Shown here piece by piece: positions 6,680 through 59,929 of a stretch of 64,000 bases of DNA (position 1 is the stretch's first letter; the number at the start of each line of letters is the position of its first letter). The notes beneath the pieces are model-generated. The model did no database searches. It had not been told where the DNA came from and saw only the letters and a list, made by a program, of their open reading frames with translations. This DNA is from Amphiscolops sp. MND2022 (taxonomy: Eukaryota), in contig OZ076410.1 of assembly GCA_964187785.1 (NCBI GenBank), forward strand, positions 40,176,001 through 40,240,000, in the 5' to 3' direction. A program made the position numbers and the translations under genes.

Positions 6680-8437
6680 CGTCGCACGCATGGGTAGATT
6701 TTACTATTTACTGTTTTCTCTTTTCAAGGGACTGTTCAATTGTTATCTATATTAGTCAGTTCAGCTTCTGTTGCATTTTGCGAAGTACTTTCAGGCGGCC
6801 GTTCCTTTATTGATTAGGTATGAGTAAGAAAGTCTCAATAGCTTACTCTGTGTTATCCTGAAAAGAAGTGCCTTGCGTGTACGCGCGGACAAAAGAAGTT
6901 GCGTGAGTAAATGCAAGGCAATGTATGTAAAAGAGCTATCTGAAAGGGGGAGAAGTATAGGAAATAAATATGTTGAATTATATCACATGAACAGGCATAA
7001 ATACGGAACAAAGTTTTACAGGCGTAGCAGTAATTATTCCAATTTTACAATTATCAGCTGTTACTGAGCAAAAGAGAAATTTGTTTTCAGCCAAAGTAAT
7101 ATTGCTTTCACTTATTTAAATTTAATGCAAGGTATTCATAAAATTTAGCATCGAAGAAATCATTGAACCTTCATTTCAGTTCAGGAATCTTATCAGAATA
7201 CCAAGGTTACAATCCGTTTTAGCGCTTTGACGGAAGTATTTTTCTTTTTGTGTCTCTATTCAATTTTAAAATTGAGTAGCATCAAGACACTTTGGGTAAA
7301 TAAAGTTAAAAGTTAAAGATTATTCTTTCGGGTGAATCTATGTAACGTCGGTGCAGTTGACTCATGACTAGACTAGGGAAAAGGTTTCTATGTTAAAACC
7401 GCTGAACGAAACCAGCATAAAATTTTCTAAGTTAGAAATTAAGATAGCCGCTGAGTGAAATCTGCGGAAAACTTTCTAAGTTAGAAATTAAGATAACCGC
7501 TGGATGAAATCTGCGGAAAATTTTCTAAGTTAGAATTTAAGATAACCGCTGAGTGAAATTTGCTGAAAATTTTCCAAGTTAGAAATTAAGATAACCGCTG
7601 AGAGAAATCTGCGCAAAATTTTCTAAATTAGAATTTAAGATAACCGCTGAGAGAAATCTGCGGAAAATTTTCTAAGTTAGAATTTAAGATAACCGCTGAC
7701 AGAAATCTGCGGAAAATTTTCTATTTTAGAAATTAAGATAACCGCTGAGAAAAATATCTAAGTTATTTTAGACTCACCAAGCCGCGGACTAAGTCGGATT
7801 GAAGGAATTTTTCTAAGACAAGTTGAGCTTGGGAGAAAAGGTAAGAAGTGGATTGGGAGAGAAGGAAAATTTTATAAGATATTAATCAAAGAAAGAAGAG
7901 AGGAAATGGGAAGATAGACTTTTTAAGTCTAAGATAAACGGCAGCGAAATGAGGGGAAAATAAGCAAAAGAAAAAGGGGAAAATAAGAGTCGAGGGAGAA
8001 GAGGGAGAATAAGAATAAGAGAAGGGAAGTGAAGGAAGAGAAGGGAAGAGGGAAGAGAGCTGCTTAAGTTGAGCTCAGCCGTTCGGCGGGAAGAATGAAG
8101 CTCCAGCCTGTGCGCGCGGTATAAAATCAAACCGAGCACTTCTGCTAGCTGGCATGTTTTGCTTGCTACCAATAGTGGCTGTGCTTCATTTTCAAATCTG
8201 CGCGGTAAGTAATAGAAATTTTCACTTGTGCAATTCCTTTCCCGCAGTACTCCATTATTATTACTTTCCTTTGCGGCCGCCAAGTTATGGCCGCCGTTTA
8301 TTTTATTCCCTTCACTTTCTTCGCCTTTACACAACGTTAGTTCTTTTTCCTGTTTTTTTATGCACGTGTCATTTTTAACATAATCAGCACAGTATTACTC
8401 AGATAAGAATTGTTAGAGCGTTAGTCATAGCGCGACA
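6680..8437 (-). repeat. 3' LTR of element 1 (1758 bp)
   Basis: Direct repeat of the sequence starting at 23420; ends in ...GCGCGACA at 8437; the left terminus reads CG instead of TG; minus-strand AATAAA near 6806-6811. Confidence 0.93.
7418..7765. repeat. 49-bp tandem repeat inside the 3' LTR (7 GAT(A/AG)CCGCTG units)
   Basis: Unit approximately gaaaattttctaagttagaaattaagataaccgctgagtgaaatctgcg. Confidence 0.92.
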
Positions 8438-8452
8438 GCTCACCCCCCTGAC
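8438..8452 (-). promoter_or_regulatory. Polypurine tract (PPT) of element 1
   Basis: Minus strand CAGGGGGGTGAGC lies immediately before the LTR start TGTCGCG. Confidence 0.75.
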
Positions 8453-8487: not shown

Positions 8488-9567
8488 TTAGGTCAAGAGT
8501 AAGGGGATATTCGGAGGAAGGTCAGAAAAGATGGGAATGTGGTTTAGCACTAGGGATTTGGGGGAAGGTTTTTCAAATTTGATTTGTATAATAACGGAGT
8601 CGTCGTTTAGAAAAGCTTCTCTGAAGTTTACTAGTAGTTTTGTGTGGGCAATGAAGTCTTCTCGTAGTAGGCCAGGGAGTGTGTAGTCGTTATTGCGGGT
8701 GCTGACACGTTCATTCATGTTGGGGGTGACGGGGAAAGAGACAGACCATTTGTTGTCCTTGTTTTTCTGGTCGAGGAGAGCGACTTCTATTTTGCCGTCG
8801 AAGGGCCATGTTCGTGGGAGAGTGAAATCGCTAAGGTAGAGCTCACAGGAGATTGAGGTGTGAGTTCCACGGAAAATGTTCACCCCGTATGGGAATATTC
8901 GGAAGGATATTTTGTAGCCTGTTAGGTGGGTATTATAGATAGGGCTTGTGAAGCTATACTTCTAGTGGTGAAGGGGGTCATCAGGAGATGTTCGGGCCTT
9001 TCGGTAGAGAGTGGAGAATGCAGCAATTTGCCAAAGACAGGGGTCACTGCTTCTGTGATCGATCGTATTAACCTTGCCGAAGATAGAGGTTTGGCATTTG
9101 ATGGTCGCCCTTAGACCTGAGTTAACAGTTTCTAGCTGTAGGCGCTTTGCTTTTTCTTCTTCTACCGAGTTGTTGAGCTGTTTTATTCGGCTTTCTAATT
9201 TCTGACGATGTTGGTAGATCTCGGTTATTGGGAATGATTTCTGTGAGGTAAAATTTGTCGATTTCTTGTGTTGGTTATTCGGGTTCGTTGATGATTCCCA
9301 TTCGTCTATCCACTTGCTTAGTCTTTTTATTCCCTCTAAAGTCTCGTGTTCGTCAGGGTCATCTGTTCTCGATATTGGTGGCCAGTCGTGGGGATGTTTA
9401 GTGGACGTAAGGGTACTTTGTGGGGTAAAGGGGATAGCGTTTGAGTTTAGTGTGCGATTCATTGTGCGGAAATTGATCGTAGTGGGACTGTTAGTCTTTG
9501 TCCTTTCAACGTTGGGTTTTCAATGGTATACTCTTGTCTCCTGCTGTCCCAGAAAACTATTTTCCAT
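8488..9567 (-). pseudogene. TRAF-like protein (coiled coil + MATH/TRAF-C domain, no RING) carried inside the retroelement; two in-frame stops
   Basis: ORFs 8962-9462 and 8488-8883 are in frame across one TAG: 'LWQIAAFSTLYRKA...*KYSFTSPIYNTHLTGYKISFRIFPYGVNIFRGTHTSISCELY...TWPFDGKIEVALLDQ...FLNDDSVIIQI', matching the TRAF MATH pattern (W.I..FS...S.P.YT...GYK..LR.Y..G.G...GTH.S......WPF..K....LLDQ). Preceded by a heptad-rich segment; upstream in-frame ATG at 9567. Confidence 0.85.
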
Positions 9568-9599
9568 GTTGAAAATTGGGGGAGTAAGGTGTATTTTAA

Positions 9600-12229
9600 A
9601 TCTACATTAAATCGAGGTGTCTTGACAAATTTGGCTCTTTTTGTGAAGTACTCCCATTTTAGTTGTTTTTTTAATGGTGCTTCATCTGCGATGATGTGAC
9701 TCCACTGATGGTGGTGTTTTCTGGGGAGTATCCGTCTAATGTCTTTTCCGCCGAATCTGTGTGGGTGTTGTGTGGATGGAATTGGCGGGACTTCTTCTGT
9801 AAACGAGAGCGGAAACGTGAGTTGTTGTTGGTCTGGTGTTGTTGAGGAGGGTGATGTTGTAGTTTGTCGTGTAGGAGGAGAAGGAACTGTTGAATCTGGA
9901 GGGTCTATTAGGAAGTTGATTGTTGTGGGTGATACTGGGGACAGCAGCAGGTCCGACGGGGATAATGGCTCAATTTCTAAATCGTCATCTAGGTTGTCGT
10001 TAGGGTTGTCGTCGTCCAGGTTTGGTAGGTCGAATATTGAGTCTCATTGCTAAAAGTAAGATAATTAGTGAGAAAGTTTTTTCTTTAAATTGGAGCTACG
10101 AAGCGCTGTACTGAGGGGTATAATGATTTCTCTTTTTGTCTCAGGTTTTGAAGTTCTACCTCTTTTATTTCGTTTTCCGTTTTTGTTCTTTGTTCGATGC
10201 TATCCTCAATAGGGGCCGCGGGGTGAATACGGAAGTTAAAACGGAGGTTAAAAAGAGATTGTACGAAGCACTGAGCAAAGTTTTAGTGAAGCTCAGGGTA
10301 TCACCAGTAAGGTGACGAAGTTCGAAATAGCGGAAGACTAGGACCGTGATATCTATAACGAATTTAATAAAGAGAAAAGCGCCGAAATATGCGCCGCAGA
10401 GTTCGAGGACATACGATATACTTCCGAATGTTTCTAAGAATTGGTTTTTGAAGTAGTCGGGTGATATCATACCGTCAACGTAAAAATCTGTACGGGGAGC
10501 GTATAACCCAAATGATTCGGGTCCGCTATGGGCCATGGAAGGGATGATGAGCTCTCGTGAAAACTTCTGGAGGGCATTTCGTGAAGCTGCGCTGATGAGG
10601 ATGTTAACCCAAGTTTCCGAGAGTTGTTTCGGCGTGTACATTCCTGCGTCTTGTGATCCAGCAAAGGATCTAGTGATCATTGGTTGATTGTCCTTGGGGC
10701 CGAAGATAGCAGGTCGGTCGCGATGTTCGGGTGAAGGAGTAAGGGTAAACCAGGAGTCTTTGTCTTCCATGTCCAGTTGAAAGAGGTTTTTAATGCGATC
10801 GCTGCAATTTTGCACGTTCGCGTTAGGATAGGTCTGTCGGGTGATGGGGTCCACGAAGGCAACCACTCCTTTGTAGAAGATGGGTATGCGGTCGTAGCAT
10901 TGGTTCATCGTGTGAAGAGGTGAGTGGGGTTCCGGGCAGTGGTAGAGCCATGCTAGGCTACCATCCGTATTAAGGAACATTGAGCGATTTCACGTGAGCA
11001 TGTATCCGGCGAGTCGTGGGTTTTCCATGGATAACATCAAGATAGTGAGGATTTGTGTTCGTTCTTGTTCACATTGAGCTTTCAATAGTTGGATTTCTGA
11101 AGCTTCGAGTAAGCGGGTGCTCTCAAAAAAGAGATAATCTAACTTCGTTCCTTGGTGGAGCCTGTAATCCATGTTGAGATAATGTGGTGTATTAGGGTTA
11201 GAGTCGCTGGGTCCTCTGAAGAGGTGGAGTCGGCCATTACCAGAACCGTCGTCAGGTGAGTAATATTGAAGTTTAGATGTCTCGCCCATGAAGATGCCGA
11301 GTCTTCTGCCGAAGGTCATGTCGAAGCCACCAAGTTGGATTGAAACGTACAGGGATTCGTAGTTGGTCGTGTATACATCGTCGGGTTTGTTGCAGTACGT
11401 TTGTGGTCTGTTGTAGACCTCGAATAAAAATTTGGTAGTCGAATCGTTGCCGCTAACAATATAGTAGTTAGATCCGTGTTTGATCATGTTCACCATTTCC
11501 TTTCTGTGTTCTGCAAGCACGCAATTATCGGTTTCTGCCCATGTGTATGCGTAGGCGTCCAGTGACGCCGTTTCACAACCAAGTTGCTCCAAAGGACAGG
11601 GAAGGACCATTTGAAACGGTGTGAGGACCTTTCCATCTCGGGTTTTGACGGATAATTCAGCGTCTTGAATGTGAGACTCGAAAGTTTCGCGTTTGATCCA
11701 TCCTCCTGTTTTGCACTCGTTGCGGGTATCAGCGTCGCGTACTCCGTCCCAACTTTTTCCGTATTTGGCGTTTCTCGTCTGTACTTGTTTCACTCCTTTC
11801 TTAAATCTGAGGACTTGTCAATGGATTATGACTTCTTTTCCCTCACCCATTGCCTTACAGGTTTCCGGGGGACAAGGAAAGATCGCTGGTGATTCCGTTG
11901 TGTAGGATTGACATACTGGAGTGGTCGTGACGACCACAATGCCATTCTTCACTCTGGTGTTTCACACGGCACATAGTGGCGTTGATAGCGCGGCGAAAAT
12001 GTTTAGTGTATAACGTTACGCTAGCACGACTTATTTCTAAGTTTTTTGGGGCCACATTAAATTGCTCTACTTGATTCAATGCGTAGAGCTTATTTTGGGT
12101 CATTTCGCGGCAGTCGAAATTAGTAACTCGCAATTTTTTAGCAACGCTAGCGAGGTTCGGCGTTGGACGTTGTGAGATCACAACGGGCGCGTAATAGGCG
12201 CATAACAAGAGTAGGAAAAGTAGTTTCAT
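9600..12229 (-). pseudogene. env: Envelope glycoprotein, gB/chuvirus-like (class III fusion type), fragmented
   Basis: Signal peptide MKLLFLLLLCAYYAPVVISQ; 'FDC...L..V..(C)' start and 'C...HC' pattern; Cys-rich ectodomain; TM segment 'VLELCGAYFGAFLFIKFVIDITVLVF'; long Pro/Ser/Thr/Asp-rich tail. Pieces 11855-12229, 10990-11793 and 10165-10980 are separated by one frameshift and one TGA. Confidence 0.85.
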
Positions 12230-12310
12230 TTTTGAAATTTTTCAGTCTGTTTTTCAATCAACCGCGTAATTGTTCCTTTTTAGAGAAAAAGTTTTAGTGT
12301 TTAGTATAGA

Positions 12311-12750
12311 CCGTAAAGAGGCAAGCTGTAATATCAAACCGGCAGCTTAGCTGGCATGACGCTAAGTGGAGGTTAAAATTTTATAGTAGTAACCTCACTA
12401 CTGTCAAAACGTGCCGAGGGGAACGATAAGTATAATTTTTTCTGTTATTTTGTTTCAGAGATGTGGATCCGTAATAAGGCCGTAAAAAGGCAAGTCGTAA
12501 TATCAAACCGACAGCTTAGTGGGCACTAGCACTAAGCGGAGGTTGAAATTTTATAGTAGTTACCTCACTACTGTTAAAAAGTGCCGAAAAGTATGTTAAT
12601 TATTGTAGTGTCTTTATGTTGCGTATTTGGGGATCCGTCGTAAGGCCGTAAAAAGGCAAGCCGTAATATCAAACCGGCAGCTTAGTGGGCAATAGCACTA
12701 AGCGGAGGTTAAAGTTTCATAGTAATAACCTCACTACTGTTAAAAAGTGC
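12311..12750 (-). ncRNA. Three tandem ~167-nt structured RNA units (pseudoknot + two hairpins) upstream of env
   Basis: Copies at 12311-12416, 12480-12586 and 12646-12750 have conserved stems with compensatory changes between copies (see findings). Confidence 0.6.
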
Positions 12751-12796
12751 AAAAATAGAAGTTTGAAAGAGACTAACTTCAACTATTGCTGAAGGT

Positions 12797-13141
12797 TCAA
12801 TTGTAGTTGTCAAGGATTGATTGGAGACTGGGAGAGGGTTTGTTTCGTCTTCGCGTATCCAAAAATTCGATAAGTTTGGTGAGAAGGAAAAGTGTTAGAG
12901 GGTGGATATGATTTAGGTATGCTATTTGTCTGTATTCCTTGAGGGACTGTGCGAGATCGGCAGCTTCTTGTGAGTCAATGTCTACCGGGATGAGCCAGTG
13001 GCCTGGTTGGTGTGGTCGAAGACTATGGATTTCGATTTGGACCACTGCGGCGCTGTCTTTCCAAGCGATAGAGAGGATTTCTTGGAGAGTGTTCGTTTCC
13101 GGGTGGCGCCAGAGAAATTTGAGTTGAATCTTAAACATCAT
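12797..13141 (-). CDS. Accessory ORF C of element 1, 114 aa, unknown function
   Basis: Intact ATG-stop ORF whose start overlaps the previous ORF's stop by 11 nt. Confidence 0.65.
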   Translation of the reverse strand: MMFKIQLKFLWRHPETNTLQEILSIAWKDSAAVVQIEIHSLRPHQPGHWLIPVDIDSQEAADLAQSLKEYRQIAYLNHIHPLTLFLLTKLIEFLDTRRRNKPSPSLQSILDNYN

Positions 13142-13526
13142 AGGGGTCGACTAGGCTGTGAAGGTATTCGATTTTAACTTCTTCCTCGAAGGGGTTGGAT
13201 GTGAGAGTGATGTCCATAAAATAAACCAAGTCGTCGAAAGCCTTGTCTTTGAGGACGGCGGGGTGCTGGAGTATGTATTGTTTGAACGAAAGGAACCAGT
13301 AGGCGTATTCCTTGGATCCGAAGTGGATAGGGAAGAGTACTAGAGCTTCTTTGTCTTCTGGTGTGAGAATACGAACTTGAATCGCTGAGGTAGTGATCTC
13401 GTAGAAGGTTGACTGTATTTCGTATTGTCCCTTAAGTTGGTTGGGAGTCCAAGGGACCGGAGGTTGAAATTGAGTGTGGAAGTAAAAGTTGTTTCCGCGA
13501 AAGACAGCCACAGCGGGAGAGGACAT
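13131..13526 (-). CDS. Accessory ORF B of element 1, 131 aa, unknown function
   Basis: Intact ORF; its ATG overlaps the upstream stop in TAATG. Confidence 0.68.
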   Translation of the reverse strand: MSSPAVAVFRGNNFYFHTQFQPPVPWTPNQLKGQYEIQSTFYEITTSAIQVRILTPEDKEALVLFPIHFGSKEYAYWFLSFKQYILQHPAVLKDKAFDDLVYFMDITLTSNPFEEEVKIEYLHSLVDPYDV

Positions 13527-13768
13527 TAGATGACAGACTTGGCTCTAGTAGAGACGTCTGTAGGTGTGTTATTATATAGCAAGCTTTCCAGAAAAGGGTA
13601 GATAGGTGATGCGGGTACACACGTGTAGGTTTCACTTTCTTCTTCTACAATTGCGTAGGCTTGAATGATGATGTTCTGCGTTGAGGGTTCCTTCTGGATA
13701 TCTGTGATTTGTGAGAGACGGTTGTCAATTTTGAAGAATATGATCATCTGTGGGTGGTGTGGAGTCAA
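13526..13768 (-). CDS. Accessory ORF A of element 1, 80 aa, unknown function
   Basis: First ORF of a stop-start coupled chain of three. Confidence 0.55.
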   Translation of the reverse strand: MTPHHPQMIIFFKIDNRLSQITDIQKEPSTQNIIIQAYAIVEEESETYTCVPASPIYPFLESLLYNNTPTDVSTRAKSVI

Positions 13769-14175
13769 TCACTGGCATTCATAAATCATAGCAAATCGGA
13801 GAATGGAATCATCAGTTATTTCATTGCTTTTGGGAGTCGAAAAAGGTCTATCTCTGCCCAGGCGGAGAGAGTAGAGAGTAAGAAAAACGAAATCTTAAAT
13901 GTATTAATTTAGTTACATTAAATAGGATAAACAGATGTAGATATTGATATACTGCACTATGTCTACTGGTTCTAGCCTGAAGTTTGATGGGCCAAATGAT
14001 CCGCGTGTGCTTGTCAGACTTTGGGTAGGGAGTGGTAGGCGTATATTCATTTCTTTGTAGCAGTATCGTTTGATAGAAAGAAATTGGAGTCGATCTTGAC
14101 TGGTCTGAGGATTATCCTCGGCCAGGAGGATTTTAATGTCTCATCTAATCTGTCTTTCTGTTGTAATATCAAAAG

Positions 14176-14880
14176 ATGGGAAGTCAGGAGAATTACGAAG
14201 ATGAGCGGGAGTTCGTGCGAGAGGAAGTTATCCTGGAGGGAACATTAGAAGAGGGGGTCGTCATCACTTATTCGGAGGGTGATGATTATTATGAAGAGCC
14301 CTCTTCGTCTTCGTCCTCCGAGTACCTGCCATCGGATGTGGAAGGCCTCGTGGGCGAGTTTGTCGAGCCACCTCTGGAGCCAGAGCCTGAGGCAGGCCCC
14401 AGCGGGCCAGATACATCGCGGCCAGTGGCTGTAGTACATCCTGAAGGACGTAATGTATCCCCCGTCCCTTCGTCTAGTAAAGGGGGTGATCCGGAAGATT
14501 TCGAGGATATGGGCAATCCCCTGTTGGAGTCCTTTAGAGGAATATTTAATCGAAATGATTTGGATATCCTTCAGTCGTGGATCCTGAATACCCGGGCATC
14601 ACTGGGTACGGAGGGGTTTGTGGTACCACATGCACCTGTTCTGCTCGCGTTCGCTAGCTTCCTTGAGGTAGATATCGGCCACACGTGGGAGGAGGTGCTG
14701 CTGTCTCAGTCGGTCGAAGTGCACCTTGCTAGGCTTTCAGCCTATATTAGTGGATGGTCAAGAATGACCATGTTCCAGCGGTTACAGTGGGAGCGAGTGT
14801 ACCAGTATTGGACTCCGGAGTCTCGGCGGGAGCAGCTCCGTTTGTTGGCGGAGAGCGGCGGGTTCCTCGTCGTGGAGTAG
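14176..14880 (+). CDS. Antisense accessory ORF of element 1, 234 aa, acidic N-terminus and helical C-terminus
   Basis: Intact 705-nt ATG ORF (AAGATGG context) opposite to gag-pol; it mostly does not overlap a long sense ORF, so it is not a shadow frame. Confidence 0.72.
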   Translation: MGSQENYEDEREFVREEVILEGTLEEGVVITYSEGDDYYEEPSSSSSSEYLPSDVEGLVGEFVEPPLEPEPEAGPSGPDTSRPVAVVHPEGRNVSPVPSSSKGGDPEDFEDMGNPLLESFRGIFNRNDLDILQSWILNTRASLGTEGFVVPHAPVLLAFASFLEVDIGHTWEEVLLSQSVEVHLARLSAYISGWSRMTMFQRLQWERVYQYWTPESRREQLRLLAESGGFLVVE

Positions 14881-15448
14881 GCCCGTTTTGGGCTACTCCA
14901 CCTCCAATACCGCTATTTTTATACGCTTCTTGTCTCTGTGGCCCTTTTGAGTAAGGCTGTTTTCGGGATTGCACAAATAATATCGATAAATATAAGCAAA
15001 TAATGGTAATACTTTTCTGATAGGTTAAATTCGCCGGCTGGAGCTTGGTGAGGAGATAGTAGAGCAGCAAAATAGGGGCCTTTTGAGTATTAGGTGGGGA
15101 AGGTTGTAGGTCAGGTATTAGGGTAGGCGTGTAGGCTAGGAGTTCTTCTAGGATAGGGTCATGGTGTGTGACGGCGAAGTATGCTAGGTGTTGATATAGG
15201 AGAGCAAAGGTCTTGGATTCCGGGCGTATAGGTATGTTTGATTTGCGGGGCGTAGGTTGTTTATGATGGCTAGGGTCTGGGTCTTCAGAGTAGAAGCAAA
15301 ATCTAACTATCTTGTTTTTGTAGGTCCAGTAGATTTTGGTAATTGTTACTTGAAGAATGCCTAAGGACTGAAGTTCTCGCGGAACTTGCCAAGGCAAATT
15401 TAGATAAACTTTATGGCATGGCATGATAAGGTTATTCTTTGTATCCAA
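14747..15448 (-). CDS. Accessory ORF downstream of pol, 233 aa, unknown function
   Basis: Intact ORF starting at the end of the pol region; its 3' end overlaps the antisense ORF by 134 nt. Confidence 0.6.
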   Translation of the reverse strand: MDTKNNLIMPCHKVYLNLPWQVPRELQSLGILQVTITKIYWTYKNKIVRFCFYSEDPDPSHHKQPTPRKSNIPIRPESKTFALLYQHLAYFAVTHHDPILEELLAYTPTLIPDLQPSPPNTQKAPILLLYYLLTKLQPANLTYQKSITIICLYLSILFVQSRKQPYSKGPQRQEAYKNSGIGGGVAQNGPTPRRGTRRSPPTNGAAPAETPESNTGTLAPTVTAGTWSFLTIH

Positions 15449-18400
15449 TTCGAGTTCTTTCGCGAAGGATGGATTGTTGTGCAGGTTGATTGGGCTGTGC
15501 GCGTTGATAGCGTGGATTTCTTTCTAAGTGACGGGCGACTGCTCTCCTTAGTTCTTGCAAGGGAGTTGGCGATTTGGTCAAAGATGCTGGGGTGTTAGTT
15601 GGGGGTGCTGGAGTCGGTTGACGTTGTGTCAACGTCAGGATAGGGGTTGTGGTGTCTCGAGGATGTGAGGTCGAAGGCTGATCGTGAGTCTTTGGGGTTG
15701 CCAACAATTGATTTTCTGGAGAGATGATACCAGAGTCTCTGATCTGGGGGGTTTGCGTTCTTTTGCGGGCAAGTATTTGGTCTCGTTGGTTCCGAACCGG
15801 CAATATGCAGAGATCTCAAAGCGTTTGTGGTTCTGAAACATTAAGTTGTTCAATTCGTCCCTTGACAAGATTGTTATAAAAGTCCGTGTCTCCACGGTGG
15901 GGAGTTGTGTATTCTTCGATAAGAGGGGGGAGTGTTTCCTCTTTAGGAAAGTATTCTATTAGATGATTCCTATGTACAGTTCGGAGATTCTCAGGGTTTT
16001 GATCTTCTGTTATTTGGTAGGTTGTATTGGTAATTCTTTTGGTAACCGTAAAGGGTCCTAGTCGCAGTTTTCGGCTTTTGGAGAGATCTTTTCGGTGGTT
16101 TTCTAGCAGAACCTTTTGTCCTATGTTGAGGTGGTTTCCAAGTTTAAATCTGTTTCTGTAGGCGTGTGAGCGAGCTGTTTGTTATCTGCACTTTTCGTAT
16201 ATGGATGAGTAGATCTTTTTGAAGGCGGTTTCTCGGTCCAGCAAGCTTTGTGATATTTGTGGCCTTAATAGTCCATTTAGTAGTTCGTTTTTGACTTGGT
16301 TTTCGCTATGGCAATGGGGAGGTAATCCGTTACAAAACTGTGATCTGCAGTTCTTGATTTTGTTCCTATAGAGTCCTAGCTTAAGACTCATAGGTATTTG
16401 CGGCTTGTTGCAGAACACTATTTCGTAGGGGGTCTTTCCGGTTCTGTAGTTGACGCTTGTGTTGTGGGCAAATGCAAATTTAGCAGCTAGTTGGGCCCAG
16501 TTGTTTCCTGATTCGTTTATGAAGTTTCTCCAGTACCTTGCAATGTGTTGGTTTTGAGTTTCGACTTTGCCATTTGTCCAGGGTGAGTGTGCAGTTCTTG
16601 GTCGAAGAGTAATGCCAAACTCTTTCGTCCAATTGACGAATCCAGTGTTCACGAAGGCTGTTCCTCTATCATGTATGATAGATTGGGGGATGCCATAATG
16701 CATAATCCATTTTTCCATAGCGTTGATTGTAGATTGTGCTCCGGTATCTCTAACCGGGTATGCCATCAAATAACGTGAGAATGCGTCAATAATGGGGAGG
16801 CAATGTGAATTTCCGCGACTAGGAGGGTTGAGTGGTCCCTTGTGATCGATATGAACCGTTCTGAACACCTGGGTCTCGGTTTCACAGTCTTCCAGAGGGA
16901 CTTCGTTATTTCTTCGTTGTTTAGATTTGTTAGATTGACAGCTAACACAATCTTGCGTGAGGGCACAGATCCAGTCGTGCATTCCAGGCCAGTAGTAGAA
17001 TCGTTTAGCATTTAGGTAGGTTTTTTCAGCTCCCATGTGGCCGCCCAGGTCGTTGTAATGTCCCATTCGGAAGCAGGCTAGAAATAGGGAGAGAGGTAGG
17101 CAGATTCTCAGGTTTTCGTCTGCCGTGTCGTCCGTTGGCTCGTTGTAACAGAGGAGGTTTCCTTGTTCTTCTATAGTTAGTCTGTCGAACTCCTGAAAGT
17201 AGCGCATGAGGCCCTTCGAGTGTTGTAACTCTGGTGACTTTGGCGTAGGCTTGTTTCCTGCCTTCATCCATTGTCGAACCGCACTGAGGACTGGGTCATT
17301 AATTTGTTCTTGTAAGATCGTTGTGACATTGAGTTCTGCTTCTCTGGATACTTTATCAAGTTGCTTGATGAATTCTTGTGCTGGCATCCTTTGTTTACCC
17401 GTTGTTGTTTTGGGGGTCTCGAGATTTTCTATCGTTTTGTCTTTTTTCGACGTACACGGGCTAGGTGCTATGAGGTCTGTATTTAAGTCGTAATTGATTT
17501 CGTTCACTTCTTGTGGTTCGTCTTCTGTGAGGGCTTCATCGTCAGCGTCGCTGTTGACAGAGCTGTAAGTGTTTTGTGATATATCGGAAGTGCTTCCTCT
17601 CGTGCCCGATCTGATTCGTAGCTCTTCGTATTTTCCAATTTCCTTTCCGGCGTCAAAACAACTTTGTGCTGTTTCTATTTTCGGGAGGTTAGGTTCCTCG
17701 TAGATATTGTTGACTCTGAAATTATTTCCATCGTTTTGTAGGTGGAGTATTTTCCGTTCTTCCCCCTTTTCGTATAAGATAGGATAGAAGTCATTTTTTG
17801 AAGTCTCTTCGTTTTCCTCGTGTTCGATCTTGTAATGAACTTGTGTCCCGTGCTCGTCGAAGAAGTGTATGTCGTTGGGTAAGATCTTGTGGCTGAGTTG
17901 ATGCTTCTTATGTTCCTCTATGGAGACGTTTCGGCTGAGTATATCAGGGAAGGCTAAGTTGCTTACCGGCGTCCATATTATCTTTAGATTCGGGAATTTG
18001 GATATAATCACTTGGTACCTGAAGAAGCGCGGTGAGACTTGTCCTTTTCGCCCCCAGAGATATAGAATCGGTTTATGGTCACAATACAAGTAAATCGGGA
18101 AAGGCGATCCGATGATGTAGTGCTCATAGGTTTGAAGAGCTGAAACTGTACCGCATAGTTCTCTATGTAATGTGGACATCTTTTGTTCTTCTTTTGCAAA
18201 AACTCGAGAAGTGAAAGAAATAATCCGTTTTCCTTCGGGGAAATGTTGTATTAGAATGCATCCGGTTCCTACGTTGGACGAATCGACGTGTATGTGGAAA
18301 GGGTACTTTGTTGAGGGTACAGCAAGGACTGTGTCCTCGCTTATTCTCTTCTTGATTTCCTGAAAGAGGTCTTCGTCCGCTTGTTTCCAACAGAAGTTCG

Positions 18401-19609
18401 TATCTTTCTTGGTCAGTTCGTAGAATGGTCGACTATCTACGTGAAGATCCTTGATGTAGCAGCTATAAAATCTTAGAGCCCCTAGGAAGATTTTTACTTC
18501 CGTTTTTGTTTTTGGCGATTTGAGATCGTGAAGATCCCTGACTCGTTTAGCCACAGGTTGTATTCCTTCAGCTGCTATCACATGTCCCAAGAACTTGACT
18601 TTTCTTGCGAAAAAGAGTGTTTTGTCAGGCGCGGCCTTGAGTCCTGCCTTCCGTAATAATTGGTGGTATTCTTGGATCACTGTGAACATTTCTTGTTTGT
18701 TTTTGGCCTGCATCAACGTGTCATCGATGTAGGTAATCGCTTGTTTCTTTTTGATTAGCGGTTCGAAGTGGATAGTCATCATACGACTGAAGAAACTTGG
18801 TATTCTTTTAAATCCGTAGAATCCTCTGGTAAATGTATATTGTTTGCCGCCAATTATGAAGCTAGTGAGTTTCTGTGTGGGCTCGTCTAGTGGAACTTGG
18901 TGAAAAGCGCAAGAGAGGTCACTTACTGAGAAGATTTTCCCGTTGATGTGCGTCATTATGGTTTGTATTGGTTCCAAGGGCCAGGAGTAATTTGTTAGAT
19001 CGGTAACTGAATTCAGGTACCTTGCGTCTATAATCAGCTTGACGTAACCGTGTTTTGGTTGTAGGATGATAGGATTTACGAATAAGGATCCCATTTCGTC
19101 GTCATCTCCCATCTCTCGAATGATGTCTGCCTCTTTGAGTTGTGTTAGTAGTTTTTCTAACTTCTCCCGTAGGTGTAATGGTACCTTACTAGGTCTCTGT
19201 CTCTTCAAAATAGCTCCCTGTTCCAGTTTAATGTTGAATTTCTGACGAGTTTTCCCGACGTCGAACTTGTGTTGTGAGTATACATCCCTAGCATCCATTA
19301 GTAGGTCTATTAGTAGAACCAGTTCTTCATCTGTGAGGTCTGAGTAGCGAAAGTCGAATTCTTTGATGTATTGAACTGCTTCTTTGTTCTGATATTGGAG
19401 ATAGTATTCGATGAGTCGTTCGTTGTCTTCCTTGGGCCTAAATATCTTGAATTGGTCGTCGCAAGGTGGTTGACAAGACTTCGCGTCGTTTGTAAAGTCG
19501 GTTTCCTGTGCTTCAAGTGAAATTCTTCTGAGAACTGTTGTATTTCGTCTTCTAGTGCGTATTCGGGGTCTCCTCTGGTTGTCATGGCGTAAACATCTAG
19601 TTCGTTTCT

Positions 19610-20040
19610 TGTATAAATTCGGAGTTGTATTTCTGAGTAGGCGAAAACGTCTTGAATAATTTGTGTAACGTCTTGCCATTGGAAGTCTTCTAGTTCTGAG
19701 GCTTCCCGTAACATCGAGACTGCCTTGATACTATTCATTTTGGCCTGTGCTTTTAGTGTCTCCAGCGATTGGACTAAGATTTGTGGGTCAATTTTGTCTT
19801 TCGATTTAGTTTTTGTGATTAGTACGTATATAAATCGTTTTAGGGTCATGTCCCAGTAGAGTATTGTATCTCCTTTTTGTGGTTTTTGTTTTGCGCAGGA
19901 GTCTTTTAGTGAGGGTATGTTCGTTAGAATTTCTTTAGAGAAGCCTTTGGCTGGTTTTAGATCAACCGGGACAAAGATGATGATAGAATCTGGTCTGCTA
20001 AGTATTGTTGTAGAATTTCCTGCTTCTATTCTGAGGCAAT
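19610..20040 (-). other. TARG1/OARD1(Poa1p)-like macro domain embedded in pol
   Basis: 'LRIEAGN...DSIIIFVPVDL...GDT...RFIYVLITK...ILVQSLETLKAQAKMNSIKAVSMLR...LEDFQWQDVTQIIQDVFAYSEIQLRIY' aligns by eye along its full length with TARG1 '...DSLAHCISEDC...RYIYYLITK...LQKSLEAMK...[26 protein letters not shown]...I.ITVY'. Confidence 0.82.
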
Positions 20041-20910
20041 CGTTCATATCTTGTGAAGGGATAGTGGAGTGTAGTAAGAGGCAATCATTGTATTCTTCAT
20101 TTTCGCTCAAAATGGTGTAAGCGAGTTCGGTAGGACTTCTAATCTGATATTTTGTGATTTCTTTGTCAATGATGTCTAGCATAGAGTATCCAATTGTTCC
20201 TTTTACTAGTGTGATTGTATGGTTCTTGTTGTTTTCCATAACATCTGGCAAGGTCCTCTCGAACCGTGTGCAGAGGACATTTATGAAGTTGAGTCCTGTG
20301 GAAACTGCCTTTCGGTTTGGTAGGAATGTAGATCCGAGAGGAAAGGAGTTCTTCGCGTTTTCGGGGGCAAATTTGTAGCATCTTGTTGTTTTCGGGTCAA
20401 TGTACACAGAGTGGGGGATTTTTGCTGTTATTATTTGCGAAACATAGGGGTAGACTTTGTTTAGTTGAAGGCTATCATAGCAGAAGGTATTTAGAGGTCT
20501 CATGAGCTCTATACCGGGGAGGTCAAAATGTTTTTTGTTGATCTGTTCTTGGCAGAAATGCATTCCAAGAAGGTTCTGTGTCTTCATCTCGGTGATCCAG
20601 ACTGTCAGAGGGAAGTTGTGTTGGCCGTCGGAGTCATAGAAGAGTCTTAGTGAGATATATCCCATCATAGGAATGATTTGACCAGAGTAGTTCCGTGTTG
20701 TGTTGTTGCTCCTTTTGAGTTCGAGGTCTTGTTGAAATTGGCAAAGTTCTCTAAAGGTCCTATAGTTGATGATTGAAGATGTTGCCCCTGTGTCAAGTAG
20801 AAATTCAATTTCCAAGCCACTATCTTTTTGTGAGTCTCCGGCAGCAAAATAATAAAGATTAAGACTAAATTTTAACGGGGCACTGCTGCTATTTTCATTT
20901 CTCGGAGACC

Positions 20911-22354
20911 TTAGTAGTTTAAAGGACGAAAGTCGGCTACCGAGTTCACCGAGTAGTCAGTTTCTATGAATTGTACTATGGATCTTCCCATGTCGTTAGT
21001 CTTGGAAATCTTTGTTCGTAAGATTGAGTAGGGGTGCTGGGAATTTCGTTTCTGTTTTGTCTCTGGAAAACTGAGTTACTCCTTGGTGGAAGAGGTTGTA
21101 TGTTGCGGTTGAACGAACTAAACAGTCCTCTATTGGAGACAAATGGAGATCTTGCTCTCTGTGGTCCAGGAGAGACGTTCCTAGAATTGATAGTGTTGTT
21201 GGAAAAGGGTCTTCGCGATTCTTGTGAAAATCTCGATTTATTAGGGTCAAACCTTGTGTTCATAGTTCTGCGTTCTGGGTTAAAGTTTCTGTTCTGTGGT
21301 CTATCGAATCGGTTCCAAGTAGGGGTTGCTTGTAGAGCTCCAGCGAGCGCCAGTTGATGTGCCTGCCACAGCCATATGTTTTTGGAACTCCGAATCGGGT
21401 AATCTTGACTGAAATCTTGAGCCATGTCCAGGTCCGGTTCTTTTGTTGTAATCGTTGGTGAAGTTATTCTCTTTTCTGTGTTAGCCTCATTTTGAACTTT
21501 CTTAACTTCTTCGTCTCTCATCTTCTTTCTGCACCAGTTAGGTGTATGTCCATTCGTTCTGCAGTAGCCGCAGAATCGTGTGGCCATTATTCGTCCTGTA
21601 GCATCTACTGTTTTCTCTACTGCGTTGATCGTGTTATTCATCTGTTCTTTGATTTGTAGTTTAATTCCCTTCAGGTCGTCTCGCATTTCCTGTATGAGTG
21701 GGTCTGCGTGTGATTCTCCGCCAGTGAGGGCGGTAGTTACTGTGTAGGAATGGTCTTTGTTTATTACTGCTTGTGAAAATTGCTCCCAAGTTCATTCGGG
21801 TGGTCCATTAGATATTCGTGTGCCTTTTCCCTCAGCTTTGGAGGTCTTAGGCCTCTCAGTGAGTAGTCGATGCACCTTTGTCTTCTTTGTCTGTCTTGTG
21901 CTGCTCTTTCTGCATTTCTGTCGTTTTGGGCAACGCCAGCAAGATCATTTGGCCAGCCTTTCCCCACGACAATTTTGATTCTGTGTAGGAAATTCTTGAT
22001 CTCTTCTCCTTCTCGTCTGGTAACATGTTCTGCTTCTATTCTGTGCCTGAATTTGTTTCTGCCATCTGCGAATCGTGTGATGAACCTTTCTCTGATTTCT
22101 GCCCAAGTGTTAGCGTCTGTGATGCTGGTCTCGAACCACTCCGCTGTGGGTCCTCTTAGTAGTGTAGCAAAGTAGGATTTTCTTCTGGAGTTGTAGTCGT
22201 CAAGTGCTGCTCCGTTTGCTGGGGTATCGCCATGAGAAAATCGGAACTTCTTTTCGATTAGCTGTATAAATTGTTCAGGATCTTGATTTGGGTCTGTTCC
22301 TGTGAATTGGTCTCTGCCGAGGTCTGGATAAGCAAAGTAATTTTGCGCAGCCAT
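20911..22354 (-). pseudogene. gag: Gypsy gag (capsid-like domain + CCHC zinc knuckle), frameshifted
   Basis: 'LRGPTAEWF...TWAEIRERFITRF' retrotransposon gag pattern; CGYCRTNGHTPNWC = CX2CX4HX4C. Confidence 0.9.
20917..20923 (-). promoter_or_regulatory. -1 ribosomal frameshift slippery heptamer U UUA AAC at the gag/pol junction
   Basis: The gag frame ends CCT TTA AAC TAC TAA (PLNY*); the -1 frame TTT AAA CTA... stays open through to FLLDTG. Confidence 0.8.
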
Positions 22355-23400
22355 TGTGAGCTGTTGAAATTATTAGAGAAAGGAATTGTAGCAACGAATA
22401 GTAAATTAAGGATTCGATTAGGTAAGATACTTCAGGTCTCTGTGAATAACCACAAAGGACTAAGGTAAAAGACGCTCTTGCAAGGATTCTAAAGATTATA
22501 AGAATTAGGCAGGCCTGACTTTGCATATACTCAGTAGTATGCAAAAAAAAAATTTTGAAGATCTCGCCTCTCAGCTTAGGAGATGTTAGTCCTCTGGTTT
22601 AAATATTTCAAACCCAAAAAATTAGGGGATACTTACAAATCCCGCTAAATTTAGATGATTAACAGAAAGGGCAATTCTGGGTATACCAATCCTCCGAATT
22701 AACCCAAAGAAAGGAAAATATGGAGAGTAAAATCGGTCCAAAAGGTCTTCAATTCGCTAGTCTAGCCTTTCAATGGCTTTTGTAGAAGTAGCGCAACAAA
22801 CAAACAGAGGGAGTCACTCTCGTCCTCAGGATTAAGTAGCCCGGGGCCAAGATCACTATCATGCAAACACTAGGGTACTATCACTAGAATTCTTAGAATT
22901 CTAGGTTTCCACCTTGGATTGCTACACAGGTTCCTGGACACCCACTGGGCTCACGGCCTTCAATCAGCCTCCGAGGAGACCTAGGCGGGCTTTTCCTTAA
23001 TATGTGTCCGTCTGGACTCGAGTGAATTTCCCAACTGTAAGTTTAAATTCCATATTAGAAAACAGTTTCATTCTTGTTAAGGACCGAATGTAATCTCATA
23101 GCGTTTCTGTATAATTAATATAAGTAAATCAGCTCTAACCGTTTTGGGGATTGAGAGGGCTAAGTTGAGCGGTGCACAAAGTTTTCCGAAAGCTGTTAAG
23201 CTGGAGAGATTCTATTGGAATACTTACCAGCAGTTCTATGATTTATATAGACCAAAGAAGCCACATATTGAGGCAGTAGGAGAAAAAAGAAAATAAGAAT
23301 TAAAACTAAGAGAAATAGGTAATTAACCGTGACTTCTGAGAGTAGGGATTCTAACAGATAGCTCATTTACTTCTCTTTTAAAAGAGAGAAAGAATTAAGC

Positions 23401-23416: not shown

Positions 23417-24156
23417 GTTTGTCGCACGCATGGGTAGATTTTACTATTTACTGTTTTCTCTTTTCAAGGGACTGTTCAATTGTTATCTATATTAGTCAGT
23501 TCAGCTTCTGTTGCATTTTGCGAAGTACTTTCAGGCGGCCGTTCCTTTATTGATTAGGTATGAGTAAGAAAGTCTCAATAGCTTACTCTGTGTTATCCTG
23601 AAAAGAAGTGCCTTGCGTGTACGTGCGGACAAAGGAAGTTGCGTGAGTAAATGCAAGGCAATGTATGTAAAAGAGCTATCTGAAACGGGGAGAAGTATAA
23701 GAAATAAATATGTTGAATTATATCACATGAACAGGCATAAATAAGGAACAAATTTTTACAGGCGTAGCAGTATTTATTCCACTTTTACAATTATCAGCTG
23801 TTACTGAGCAAAAGAGAAATTTGTTTTCAGCCAAAGTAATATTGCTTTTACTTATTTAAATTTAATGCAAGGTATTCATAAAATTTAGCATCGAAGAAAT
23901 CCTTGAACTTTCATTTCAGTTCGGGAATCTTATCAGAATACAAAGTTTACAATCCGTTATAGCTTTGACGGAAGTATTTTTCTTTTTGTGTCTCTATTCA
24001 ATTTTAAAATTGAGTAGCATCAAGACACTTTGGGTAAATAAAGCTATAAGTTAAAGATTATTCTTTCGGATGAATCTATGTAACGTCAGTCCAGTTGACT
24101 CTTGACTAGACTAGGAAAAAGGTTTCGATGTTAAAACCGCTGAACGAAACCAGCAT

Positions 24157-24550
24157 AAAATTTTCTAAGTTAGAAATTAAGATAGCCGCTGAGTGAAATC
24201 TGCGGAAAATTTTCTAAGTTAGAAATTAAGATAACCGCTGAATGAAATCTGCGGAAAATTTTCTAAGTTAGAATTTAAGATAACCGCTGAGTGAAATTTG
24301 CTGAAAATTTTCTAAGTTAGAAATTAAGATAACCGCTGAGAGAAATCTGCGGAAAATTTTCTAAGTTTGAAATTAAGATAACCGCTGAATCAAATCTGCG
24401 GAAAATTTTCTAAGGTAGAAATTAAGATAACCGCTGAGTGAAATCTGCGGAAAATTTTTTAAGTTAGAATTTAAGATAACCGCTGAGAGAAATCTGCGGA
24501 AAATTTTCTAAGTTAGAATTTAAGATAACCGCTGAGAAAAATATCTAAGT
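24157..24550. repeat. 49-bp tandem repeat inside the 5' LTR (8 units)
   Basis: Same unit as 7418-7765 with one extra copy. Confidence 0.9.
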
Positions 24551-25011
24551 TATTTTAGACTCACCAAGCCGCGGACTAAGTCGGATTGAAGGAATTTTCC
24601 TAAGACAAGTTGAGCTTGGGAGAAAAGGGAAGAAGTGGATTGGGAGAGAAGGAAAATTTTATAAGATAATAATCAAAGAAAGAAGAGGGGAAATGGGAAG
24701 ATAGACTTTTTAAGTCTAAGATAAACGGCAGCGAAATGAGGGGAAGATAAGCAAAAGAGAAAGGGGGAAATAAGAGTCGAGGGAGAGAAGAGGGAGAATA
24801 AGAATAAGAGAAGGGAAGTGAAGGAAGAGAAGGGAAGAGGGAAGAGAGCTGCTTAAGTTGAGCTCAGCCGTTCGGCGGGAAGAATGAAGCTCCAGCCTGT
24901 GCGCGCGGTATAAAATCAAACCGAGCACTTCTGCTAACTGGCATGTTTTGCTTGCTACCAATAGTGGCTGTGCTTCATTTTCAAATCTGCGCGGTAAGTA
25001 ATAGAAATTTT

Positions 25012-25423
25012 GGCTCTTTTCTGTTCCCCCCCCACCACCAAAATTTTTGAAAATAACTTTCCTTAAAAACTTTAGACTAACCTTTTTAAAAGTAAAACCT
25101 TCTTTCATAACAGAAAGTTAACTTCTATTGGAGTAGTTTTCCGCTTGAACAAAACATTGTTCACGCATTTTGACTATAATTATGTTCGTATTAAGTGTCT
25201 ATTGATGACTCAAAACAGGAAGCTGTTGATTTCTTCATCAAAAAAAGGCGTGACTACATATTGAAAAAGTGTGAAAAAAGTTTGTATCTGAATCCTAAAC
25301 GATCACCCTGAGAATAAATTTAAAATTGAAGCTTTCTGGTTTGTATTCAAGTCTATTTGCTATAAGATTTTCACTAATTTTCCAAAAAAAATTTTGGTGG
25401 TGGGGGGAAAACAGAAAAGAGCC
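25012..25423. mobile_element. 412-bp MITE with GG...CC TIRs and 8-bp TSD (Merlin-like)
   Basis: TIR GGCTCTTTTCTGTT(T)CCCCCC(C)ACCACCAAAATTTTT at both ends; GAAATTTT duplicated at 25004-25011 and 25424-25431; the empty site is visible in the other LTR (~8214-8221). Confidence 0.9.
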
Positions 25424-25555
25424 GAAATTTTCACTTGTGCAATTCCTTTCCCGCAGTACTCCATTATTATTACTTTCCTTTGCGGCCGCCACGTTATGGC
25501 CGCCGTTTATTTTATTCCCTTCACTTTCTTCGCCTTTACACAACGTTAGTTCTAT

Positions 25556-25755
25556 NNNNNNNNNNNNNNNNNNNNNNNNNNNNNNNNNNNNNNNNNNNNN
25601 NNNNNNNNNNNNNNNNNNNNNNNNNNNNNNNNNNNNNNNNNNNNNNNNNNNNNNNNNNNNNNNNNNNNNNNNNNNNNNNNNNNNNNNNNNNNNNNNNNNN
25701 NNNNNNNNNNNNNNNNNNNNNNNNNNNNNNNNNNNNNNNNNNNNNNNNNNNNNNN
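25556..25755. other. Assembly gap (200 N)
   Basis: Run of N bases. Confidence 1.
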
Positions 25756-27355: not shown

Positions 27356-29681
27356 AAACATTTTGCCGGCCAGAGCTGATAGTGTTGACCTCAATTTCCA
27401 TTGCTATTGGAACAAAATGAGGTCACAAACACTGCTTTAACGACAAATTGAATGCGCTGATTCGAAAAATGACAATTGATGGGGTGAACTGATCAATTGA
27501 TAAACATTGTAAGTATTTAAACTACCTTTTTGAACAATGATCTTCAAACAAGATCAATTTCATCTAGGTTTTTGGTTTTTCATTCAGTAATTGGCGTCTT
27601 CAATACGAGGAAACCCATTTGAATTGCTTTAACGCCATGAAATTTTTCAACTACGTGATTAGTTCAAAAGCTTTGATCGAAAAAACTTTATGAAAAAACA
27701 TTGAACATGGCGTCTCATGTTAATCGCTTTGATTAAAGAGATGTTACTGTGCCAATTTGTTTGGTTGCCTAGATAGATCTACGAGGGTTCTATCTATTCT
27801 AGTAGATCTATGTAGGTTCCAACCCAGTTTTTACCGCCACCGCTGTTACTATCAAAATTTGTTAGCAGCAGAAAAATAGCTACAGGGAATTATCTTATAG
27901 TAGTCTTCCGGATGCACTCATCACTTGAACAAAGTTATAAATAATTAAAGATTCAAACTTTCTGAACTAGACCATTCAAAGCTTATGAACAGCTTTCTTT
28001 TCATATACAATTCTTGAAAAACTGTAATATCTCTCTGAGCTTTATTTGTTTTTGTTATTTCTGCGATACGATACGGAACGCCGGGTTTTTGACATGAAGC
28101 GAATGAGTGTTAATTTTTCGTTCGCCGAGAGCTTGGCGTGCGTTCAGATGCGAATGCGAAACTTCGTCTACGCTTAGTAGTTATCTTTACTTAAGTCCGA
28201 GAAGAATTGAAGGCGGTGTAGACTGGTAGTGTGAATAATTGTGCGCTTTTCAGATGAATAAGATATGCTTCTACTATCGAATATGAAAGCCTAAACGCAG
28301 AAAAAATACTGTGCCCGCAGGGACTTATTTTAGGATATATAGAAGTCAAAGCTGGTTTCGAAGCTAGAAACAAGATTCCTAAAATGTATGAACAACTTCT
28401 CCAGTTGGAAGTCACGCGTTTTTGTATTTAGGCGGAAGGTAATCATTTTGTTTTGTAAATCACTTTTCGGTTAACTTCTAATTACCAACTCTTCGTCTCA
28501 GACTCAAAAGTCAAGAGAATGCGCGGCCCTAACCAATCATCTGCAACTAAGGTTGCTGTCAACTTTCGACGAAAAGTCACTTGCCAAAGATAGACTGAAC
28601 AACGAAACAATTGATGGCAAGTAGAAGTAAAAAGGTAAGTAGAAAGAAACAGTCATAGTTCCAGTGAACCACCACGTAATGTAGTCAGAAATCAATTTTC
28701 AGAGATGAGAAGCGAGTAAATTTTTCAAAACTCCGACTGAAACGTTCTTTTTCTGATGCTTTTGGTAAATTTCTGGCTGTTATTCCTAAGCTGAGTGGAG
28801 TTCAGTTTGAAGTTGAGTGAGAGTACACATGGATAAAACATAATTTTGAAAATTTTCCTGGAAGATTTGGAACACACTTCAGCGAAAATAATTAGGCTTG
28901 AAGAAAAATCTTATTGACAATTTTCTGACAGACGTTTACATAGCATTGCTTTGTTTTGGTTAATTTCCAAAGAGCACGTAGCTATGCACTGCAAAGCATG
29001 ACGGGACGTAAGAATTTTTCTGAACTTTGTTTTTAGTACGACGTCTTCCGAGTTTTTTTGAGTTGTTTTTGCAATCCAGAGAAGCGTCGTTATGCGTAAA
29101 ACAGTTGAAGAAACATTTTTACAAAGTCAAGGAGAACAAGGTCAGGTTCACAGGGTTTTAGAAATTTGAGTGTTTTCTTTGATTTAGACGATTCAGACAT
29201 AAAATTACTAATCATGCTATGATAACCGACTAAAACATTGTTTCTGCCCCATTGAACTCAAGTCCCTCGATGGCGGTCGTGGGATTTTTCGAAAAGATTC
29301 ATTGTGAAAGTCAATGAATCAGATTATTTCAAGTTGAGTAGCAACTGCGAGTGGTACATGCTGCGCAACAGTAGTCCTTTGACACATTACGGGCAACGTT
29401 CGAGGAGTATTGAACCGCAACACCGTTTCCAAAATAAGCTTTGGTCAAGGCTCTTTCAACTGAAGTAGATTTACTGCAAAGTTTTTCACTTCTTGATCTG
29501 ATTCCGACAATACACGCAGCCTGTGTCTGCAGCAAGGTGACCACTTGGTCTGCTTTTAGCAGACATTCTGCTTTGGTCTGTTTTTGTCTGCTTTTTCAAT
29601 CATGTCTGCTTTTTTCTTTTGAACGTATCAAATCTAACAATCTATATAACAAGTAATTTCATCATTTCTTAAAATGTTCTA

Positions 29682-32035: not shown

Positions 32036-32100
32036 TTTTGGCGTAATGGTAAAAGATTAGACTTTAAAGCTGTAAATTGCAGGTTTGAATCCCCATAATT
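32036..32100 (+). pseudogene. tRNA-derived remnant (unit 1; copies at ~38640-38700 and ~45135-45195)
   Basis: TGGCGTAATGGT ... GGTTTGAATCC with tRNA-like spacing; stems are broken. Confidence 0.45.
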
Positions 32101-59926: not shown

Positions 59927-59929
59927 GTG

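Follow-up and report, generated by a model that had tools for sequence, protein, structure and literature searches.

The element and its TRAF-like gene

The window, by which we mean the whole 64,000-nt stretch of DNA that was analysed, was found to contain an env-bearing LTR element of the Ty3/gypsy type, about 19 kb long and encoded on the minus strand, which hosts a TRAF-like gene between env and its 3′ LTR. The gene order is gag, protease, TARG1-like macrodomain, reverse transcriptase (RT), RNase H, integrase, small open reading frames (ORFs), env, an ORF that we refer to as orfX, and the TRAF gene. The 5′ LTR (23420–25555; on the minus strand, as are the genes, ORFs, polypurine run and 3′ LTR listed below unless stated otherwise) has lost its outer end in an N gap (25556–25755). 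After it come a TGG near 23416 that resembles a primer site, a gag-like region split in this copy (20976–22369) and a broken pol (15816–20956) coding for protease, RT, RNase H and integrase, with the TARG1-like macrodomain (19520–20020, E 1e-9) located between protease and RT. The interval between integrase and env holds small conserved ORFs (12797–13150, 13131–13544 and within 14747–15523) with no significant Pfam family, as well as a conserved antisense ORF on the plus strand (14167–14880), again with no Pfam family. Next come an env-like fusion glycoprotein gene (PF24664; 10165–12241), orfX (9459–10043), the TRAF-like gene (8488–9462), a polypurine run (8443–8449) and the 3′ LTR (6680–8442). 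The latter contains an internal 49-bp tandem array, and its edge at 8442 was inferred from a TG that follows the purine run, the counterpart in the 5′ LTR being lost in the N gap; outside the array the two LTRs are 97–99% alike, with the outer end in the gap. Overall, gag, pol, env and the TRAF gene are each broken in the window copy. ARAGORN detected no tRNA in the window, and no BIR or BCL2 match was obtained among the scanned window ORFs. A repeat of about 168 bp is present in three copies (12308–12769) directly before env. Elsewhere in the window, 27596–47222 is occupied by a tandem array whose unit measures about 6.5 kb, and 48000–64000 by a strongly G-skewed region with a 1,670-bp period near the window end.

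A genome search with the MATH query returned at least 150 matches (150 of 473 candidates scored) and a Pfam-family search also at least 150 (150 of 440 candidates scored), the two lists overlapping in part. Among 20 loci chosen from across the first list, env homology was found upstream in all 20 and orfX in 18; a further 20, mostly from the Pfam-family list, comprised 16 loci with env and orfX, three host TRAF-like exons and one env-less fragment. Four element families were found to carry the TRAF gene at the same place, family I being that of the window. Their env genes are 55–74% identical between families and their MATH domains 18–37%, and gag and pol were found in the neighbouring stretch for all four (one stretch per family). 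In families III and IV, the integrase–env interval contains distinct sets of 105–155-aa ORFs, with no Pfam family.

An earlier note on this DNA had described an intronless frame of about 360 codons between env and the polypurine run, with LNSNAIPFTP near its N-terminus, a coiled-coil segment, a complete MATH domain and two in-frame stops. The 360-codon frame was indeed recovered, free of introns, on the minus strand (9567–8488), the plus strand of the same segment being closed, and LNSNAIPFTP is encoded at 9450–9421. Both stops are present, a TGA at 9522–9520 and a TAG at 8964–8962, but only the second is a lesion. The gene has its conserved start at 9462, an ATG that shares the sequence ATGA with the orfX stop and gives sister proteins of 300–338 aa; the TGA is not a lesion because it lies upstream of this start, and its position is also a stop in three of the five sister loci compared. 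The TAG was seen in the window copy only, among six loci compared, and falls within MATH, so that the domain is present here but interrupted rather than complete. Set against its closest sister, the window copy shows a difference of one gap. The ATGA overlap recurs in both family II loci and in all 13 family I loci with an identified orfX end. Of the 30 best loci of the MATH search (window included), 28 have a recognised start, and 24 of these 28 are open for at least 290 codons; the 30 are the top scorers, and 19 of the 24 open copies belong to a young, near-identical set (mean difference 0.4%) and hence are not independent. The window copy is a pseudogene, and the gene itself is real and, as read from the sequences of its sisters, functional as a family.

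The earlier note had missed orfX, a conserved ORF between env and the TRAF gene (10043–9459) for which no Pfam family was matched. In families I and II it has no ATG and is preceded by an acceptor-like TTTTAG site, and a spliced subgenomic message is therefore likely. Stop-restart translation at overlapping stop and start codons is known from viruses and LINEs. We incline to the view that a spliced orfX–TRAF message would be made and that the TRAF gene would be translated from it by stop-restart at the ATGA. In all four families the N-terminus of orfX is acidic and rich in proline, and its C-terminal domain is basic and conserved; that orfX might be a nuclear regulator is a guess.

Fold, receptor surface and PAM2-like motif

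The part of the frame after the TAG matched the TRAF/meprin MATH family (PF21355, E 2e-13), and the best PDB match was TRAF5 (E 1e-8). For one natural sister with an open frame, AF2 predicted a loose N-terminus, a helix, a 57-residue helix (residues 75–131) and a MATH sandwich (pLDDT 79), and the best Foldseek matches of this model were TRAF5 and TRAF4 (E 5e-11). The coiled-coil segment (9066–9240 in the window) agrees with this long helix and with a heptad score that was reached by only 0–14 of 2000 shuffles in four open sister copies; it opens with an FP[LI] block resembling the first coiled coil of the host TRAF. The protein thus combines a TRAF-C/MATH β-sandwich (about 8575–9036) with a preceding TRAF-N coiled coil, as in TRAF-domain proteins, on the evidence of PF21355, the model and the heptad test. 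The N-terminal RING and zinc fingers of canonical TRAF2–6 E3 ligases had no match in five open sisters. Judging by its fold family, the element protein may form trimers.

The receptor groove of this MATH domain has diverged. In the sections of PMC6125299 consulted, the receptor hot spots common to TRAF1, 2, 3 and 5 are given as R393, Y395, a serine triad, F456 and C469. Through the TRAF5 alignment, family I was seen to keep the arginine of this set, while the tyrosine, the serine triad, the following phenylalanine and the cysteine are not kept; along with the triad, the FQRP stretch and the strand-7 motif have been replaced. P0009, a host-type protein, keeps the arginine, tyrosine and phenylalanine and lacks the serine triad of the same partial description. 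Classical TNFR-tail binding by the element protein is therefore unlikely, as the hot spots are largely absent.

The N-terminal motif fared better than the earlier note, which had called it weaker evidence, would suggest: it is among the best-conserved features of the gene. The PAM2 motif is defined, in the portion of PMC2854688 consulted, by positions 3, 4, 5, 7, 10 and 12. LNSNAIPFTP (9421–9450) corresponds to positions 3–12, with S at position 5 in the window copy and P in most sisters. In six of six representatives of families I and II, L3, N4, P5, A7, F10 and P12, that is the MLLE-contact positions, as well as position 9 are invariant, and other columns near the motif show three to five residues in the same six. 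The full pattern (L3, N/S4, P/V/T5, A7, F10, P12) was found in 25 of the 28 loci with a start among the 30 mentioned above, the window copy failing at position 5, and the chance of the pattern within the first 20 residues is about 5e-6; the score for Pfam PF07145 is below its cut-off. Families III and IV have no PAM2 motif. The host PABPC carries an MLLE domain. Binding of the family I and II proteins to PABPC through PAM2 is predicted, and we consider it quite probable. P0092, a protein from another source, begins with the same PAM2 pattern and groups with families I and II at 87/91.

Probable host origin, selection and possible roles

The closest host genes that were found are two intron-containing TRAF paralogues with GT-AG intron ends, L065 and L080. 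Their relatives in other data sets are 72–94% identical over the MATH exon (best seven of ten), and the cluster of one relative contains RefSeq proteins of the acoel Convolutriloba macropyga, from which the host is probably an acoel flatworm too. In a MATH tree of 47 rows, all the element genes and L065/L080 formed one clade (100/100), apart from the RING-TRAFs and from two other host TRAF exons. The MATH domain of family I is only 23–26% identical to the host paralogues, both family I and family II sit on long branches, and the tree comes with a warning of long-branch joins. The likeness of the element genes to the host reaches the first coiled coil, where family IV shares an exact ten-residue stretch with L065. 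L065 and L080 share a phase-2 intron, located towards the end of MATH, that is absent from the element copies (one locus for each of the four families), family IV reading through the site as a spliced message would. Because this shared host intron is missing from the element copies, the simplest reading, and in our view a very probable one, is that the gene was captured from spliced host mRNA, in line with the capture that the earlier note had proposed. It is possible, alternatively, that the gene was captured as DNA and that the intron was then lost during the RNA cycle of the element. An AU test (p 0.27, for 30 of the 47 rows and a quick tree) did not reject one common origin for the LTR copies, but the free tree needs three changes, so that one capture or several are possible.

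The donor also bears on what was lost at capture. A 482-aa RefSeq model, the acoel orthologue of the donor, has no RING match and one zinc-finger-like stretch recognised by eye, and L065 has a short exon matching this stretch. A regular-expression scan covering L065 and its upstream side, about 30 kb in all, gave one zinc-finger-like exon and no RING pattern, in a region whose introns could hide a RING. The donor subfamily thus appears to be RING-less itself, and no RING needed deleting; since the orthologue has no RING and its zinc-finger-like stretch matches an exon of L065, capture probably dropped a zinc finger rather than a RING. These results weigh on the model of the earlier note, in which a RING-deleted dominant negative would occupy TNFR/TLR tails and block NF-κB. 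The element protein does lack a RING, and a pathway to block may exist, as the genome holds a RING and zinc-finger gene of TRAF type and 29 TIR-domain matches. A donor subfamily that appears RING-less already speaks against this model, however, as does the retention by family I of the arginine alone among the TRAF2 hot spots listed in the part of PMC6125299 consulted, and no Rel (PF00554) or TNFR (PF00020) domain was matched in the genome by an exon-by-exon search that had no positive control. We regard a dominant negative of this kind as unlikely. Of the proposals in the earlier note, host capture is supported, RING deletion is not, and the decoy reasoning is weaker than the note had put it.

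Selection on the gene was assessed across its copies. For seven natural open ORFs of family I, the maximum-likelihood ω was 0.17 overall; by region it was 0.11 in MATH (lnL −1794.2 versus −1916.6 at ω of 1), 0.21 in the coiled coil and 0.28 in the N-terminus, with dS above 1 between most subfamilies. Pairwise dN/dS was 0.06 in family III (one pair) and 0.08–0.15 in family IV (ten pairs), compared with 0.03–0.09 for env and 0.06–0.13 for orfX. The sole pair of family II, two near-identical copies, gave 3.4 at a dS of 0.005, an uninformative value although it points in the direction opposite to the other families, and the pairwise values across the 16 PAM2 codons were noisy (0.06–1.4). The findings that the earlier note had named as fatal to its proposal, namely no MATH match, a single copy or neutral evolution, were thus not obtained: the gene is multi-copy, many sisters are open, and it evolves under purifying selection. 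The same tests refute the idea of a neutral passenger, a functionless host fragment. Such a fragment might well be broken, as are the window copy and many matches of the MATH query, yet ω is 0.11–0.28 in all regions of the protein over the above range of dS, and the gene has been retained in four families whose env genes are only 55–74% identical; we give this idea next to no credence.

In the family I pair L035/L036, dS was 2.5 for orfX and 1.9 for the TRAF gene versus 0.65 for env, and other family I pairs are similar, which hints at exchange of a 3′ cassette or homogenisation of env. Family II and the internally deleted derivatives contain a second, very diverged MATH-like ORF of 176 aa between integrase and env (L048:1512–2039, L045:4732–5217, L046 and L032; 94 matches in the genome). 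It had no Pfam match, and none is present in the window. Aligned to the host TRAF profile with hhalign it gave E 4e-4 and a probability of 35%, and its model (pLDDT 64) had the MATH domains of USP7 and TRAF4 as best Foldseek rows (E 0.006–0.01).

The deleted derivatives (L032, L045 and L046) have lost most of env and keep the TRAF gene or its MATH part, and L032 has LTR matches on both flanks. This retention would fit a gene kept mainly for the benefit of the host, in stem-cell survival and regeneration, as has been reported for the planarian Burro1 IAP, for which the passages of PMC13465017 consulted cite a pro-survival role. Against such a benefit, the gene sits in dispersed and recently copied elements (the 19 copies with a mean difference of 0.4%), no fixed, LTR-free domesticated locus was shown, and selection on an active element lineage accounts for the dN/dS values with no gain to the host. 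We hold this explanation to be very unlikely.

The reading that we prefer, at marginally better than an even bet, is that a clade of env-bearing Ty3/gypsy elements carries the TRAF gene after env as an adaptor mimic that would tune host stress or cell-death signalling, with PAM2 as a predicted dock for PABP. Its observed part consists of the position, the fold, the four families, the open frames, the purifying selection, the related host paralogues with their introns, and the absence of a shared intron from the element copies. Mechanistically, the element protein would assemble via its coiled coil and meet the partners of the host paralogue; the PAM2 motif of families I and II would tether it to poly(A)-bound mRNPs. 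In vertebrates, TRAF1 promotes survival by way of TRAF2 and cIAP. Action of the element protein on host TRAF partners and on cell survival is, to our mind, evenly balanced; IAP neighbours in a metagenome locus (L091, below) and in the planarian Burro elements fit a TRAF1-type survival role, the link to cell death being drawn from such neighbouring genes in other elements and from vertebrate TRAF biology. A complex prediction run without alignments for a natural element protein and two copies of the host-type TRAF domain reached a score of 0.10, the mark being 0.34.

In the window's family the protein may no longer mimic the donor, because its groove has strongly changed and its MATH identity to the host is as low as stated above. 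The job of the protein may have changed there: the coiled coil and MATH would serve as a scaffold presenting PAM2, and the protein would act on mRNA fate rather than signalling, competing with deadenylation or silencing factors for PABPC and so protecting or favouring element RNA. The invariant PAM2 contacts of families I and II and the same motif at the start of P0092 agree with this, as does the replacement of the serine triad, the FQRP stretch and the strand-7 motif in a domain whose core nevertheless has an ω of 0.11. Families III and IV, however, keep a donor-like MATH with no PAM2, which leaves the original capture unexplained, and the altered surface is conserved across the family I subfamilies, which suggests a new ligand rather than a mere scaffold. 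Overall, we find this change of job rather unlikely and retain the adaptor mimic as the preferred reading.

Relatives of the gene and comparison with known systems

The same TRAF subfamily was also met outside the LTR elements. A fifth form was found in 13 of 18 stretches with no env or pol nearby; it keeps the intron (two of two examined), adjoins a 2-kb inverted repeat and is read as the putative cargo of a DNA element. These loci (L071–L079 and L083–L086) represent a multi-copy element with kilobase inverted repeats and an intron-retaining TRAF of this subfamily. Near its TRAF lie ORFs resembling, by eye, a PC4-type protein and an HUH-type motif, both with no Pfam support, and L079 has a fragment that resembles MO25/CAB39. 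Distant relatives of the second MATH-like ORF occur in the inverted-repeat element as well.

Of 99 relatives found in metagenome data, 80 loci were inspected; env was present in none, and one had a distant integrase match. The best of these loci, L091, is gene-dense with long unbroken ORFs and encodes HSP70, a kinase, a BIR-RING IAP, an endonuclease/exonuclease/phosphatase-family protein and three MATH genes, one of which (P0085) groups with the host paralogues (92/86). With no viral hallmark gene in the 12.5 of 39 kb covered, we infer from its gene content that L091 may derive from a large DNA virus. Lastly, several unnamed outside proteins (P0092, P0096, P0103, P0112, P0141, P0144, P0161, P0088 and P0101), one with the N-terminal PAM2 pattern, group with the element families and may be carried by related elements of other acoels; a search of this genome for P0112 at E 1e-30 gave no match.

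That unrelated mobile elements have repeatedly taken up the same TRAF subfamily suggests that they are limited by a pathway of the host. The immunity of the host lineage has been little studied. A tentative suggestion, which we hold as possible and somewhat doubtful, is that one RING-less acoel TRAF is an anti-parasite hub that has been stolen on three or more occasions, with env-bearing retrotransposons taking it as mRNA, an inverted-repeat DNA element taking it together with its intron, and a probable large DNA virus as the third taker. The window lineage would then have made a PABP-tethered TRAF linking retroelement mRNPs to stress or death signalling. For genome annotation, apparent TRAF expansions in worm genomes can be element cargo, as illustrated by the at least 150 TRAF-MATH matches and by the 16 of 20 sampled loci that lie behind env.

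Searches of the open-access literature turned up no description of the present gene, and none of acoel elements with a TRAF as cargo. The partial text of PMC7586133 reports more than 121 planarian MATH transcripts, and the string ‘transpos’ is absent from it; in the main text of PMC13524379, as far as covered, neither ‘TRAF’ nor ‘Xenacoelomorpha’ appears.

Among known proteins, RING-less TRAFs of the TRAF1 type (PMC7586133 and PMC6125299, each in part) are alike in having a coiled coil and a TRAF-C fold with no RING. The element protein differs in belonging to a separate subfamily, with YPYGCD for YLNGDG and an insert after the first strand, in having no zinc finger and in not keeping the hot spots for Px(Q/E)E motifs. 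The PAM2 proteins eRF3, Paip2, PAN3, Tob and ataxin-2 share the L3, N4, P5, A7, F10, P12 pattern; the element motif has proline at position 9, where glutamate is the preferred residue (PMC2854688, in part), and is here joined to a TRAF domain within a protein encoded by a retroelement, a combination of which the literature searched listed no example.

Among known elements, errantivirus-like Ty3/gypsy elements with a gB-type (class III) env (PMC13524379, in part) have the same gag-PR-RT-RH-IN order and a separate env of viral-fusion type. The window element has these features together with LTRs, and differs in its several accessory ORFs and its macrodomain. The closest parallel is provided by the giant planarian Ty3/gypsy elements Burro/GYPSM1. 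According to the sections of PMC6431247 consulted, these carry MATH_TRAF_C, pair MATH with BIR and BCL2-like domains and have been proposed to meddle with apoptosis and ubiquitination. The kind of cargo is therefore already known. Burro is likewise an env-bearing gypsy element, with MATH_TRAF_C as a separate accessory ORF in one species, but the same partial source describes it as exceeding 30 kb, with a polyprotein of 4,900–5,100 aa that includes env, BIR, BCL2-like and ankyrin domains and with MATH in or upstream of ORF1. The window element, at about 19 kb, shows no giant polyprotein, no env between gag and pol, and no BIR or BCL2-like domain; its env is separate after pol, and its stand-alone TRAF ORF, with coiled coil and PAM2, follows env. 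The position of the element genes in the tree beside acoel host paralogues suggests a capture independent of Burro, which was compared by description rather than by sequence. Large DNA viruses often carry accessory genes of host origin, and invertebrate LTR elements rarely do. The section on Burro MATH in PMC6431247, as consulted, names no donor and no selection test, and one genome here shows a likely donor, a missing intron, selection and later remodelling together. What the present data add is the place after env, the likely donor, the selection, the PAM2 fusion and the parallel captures.
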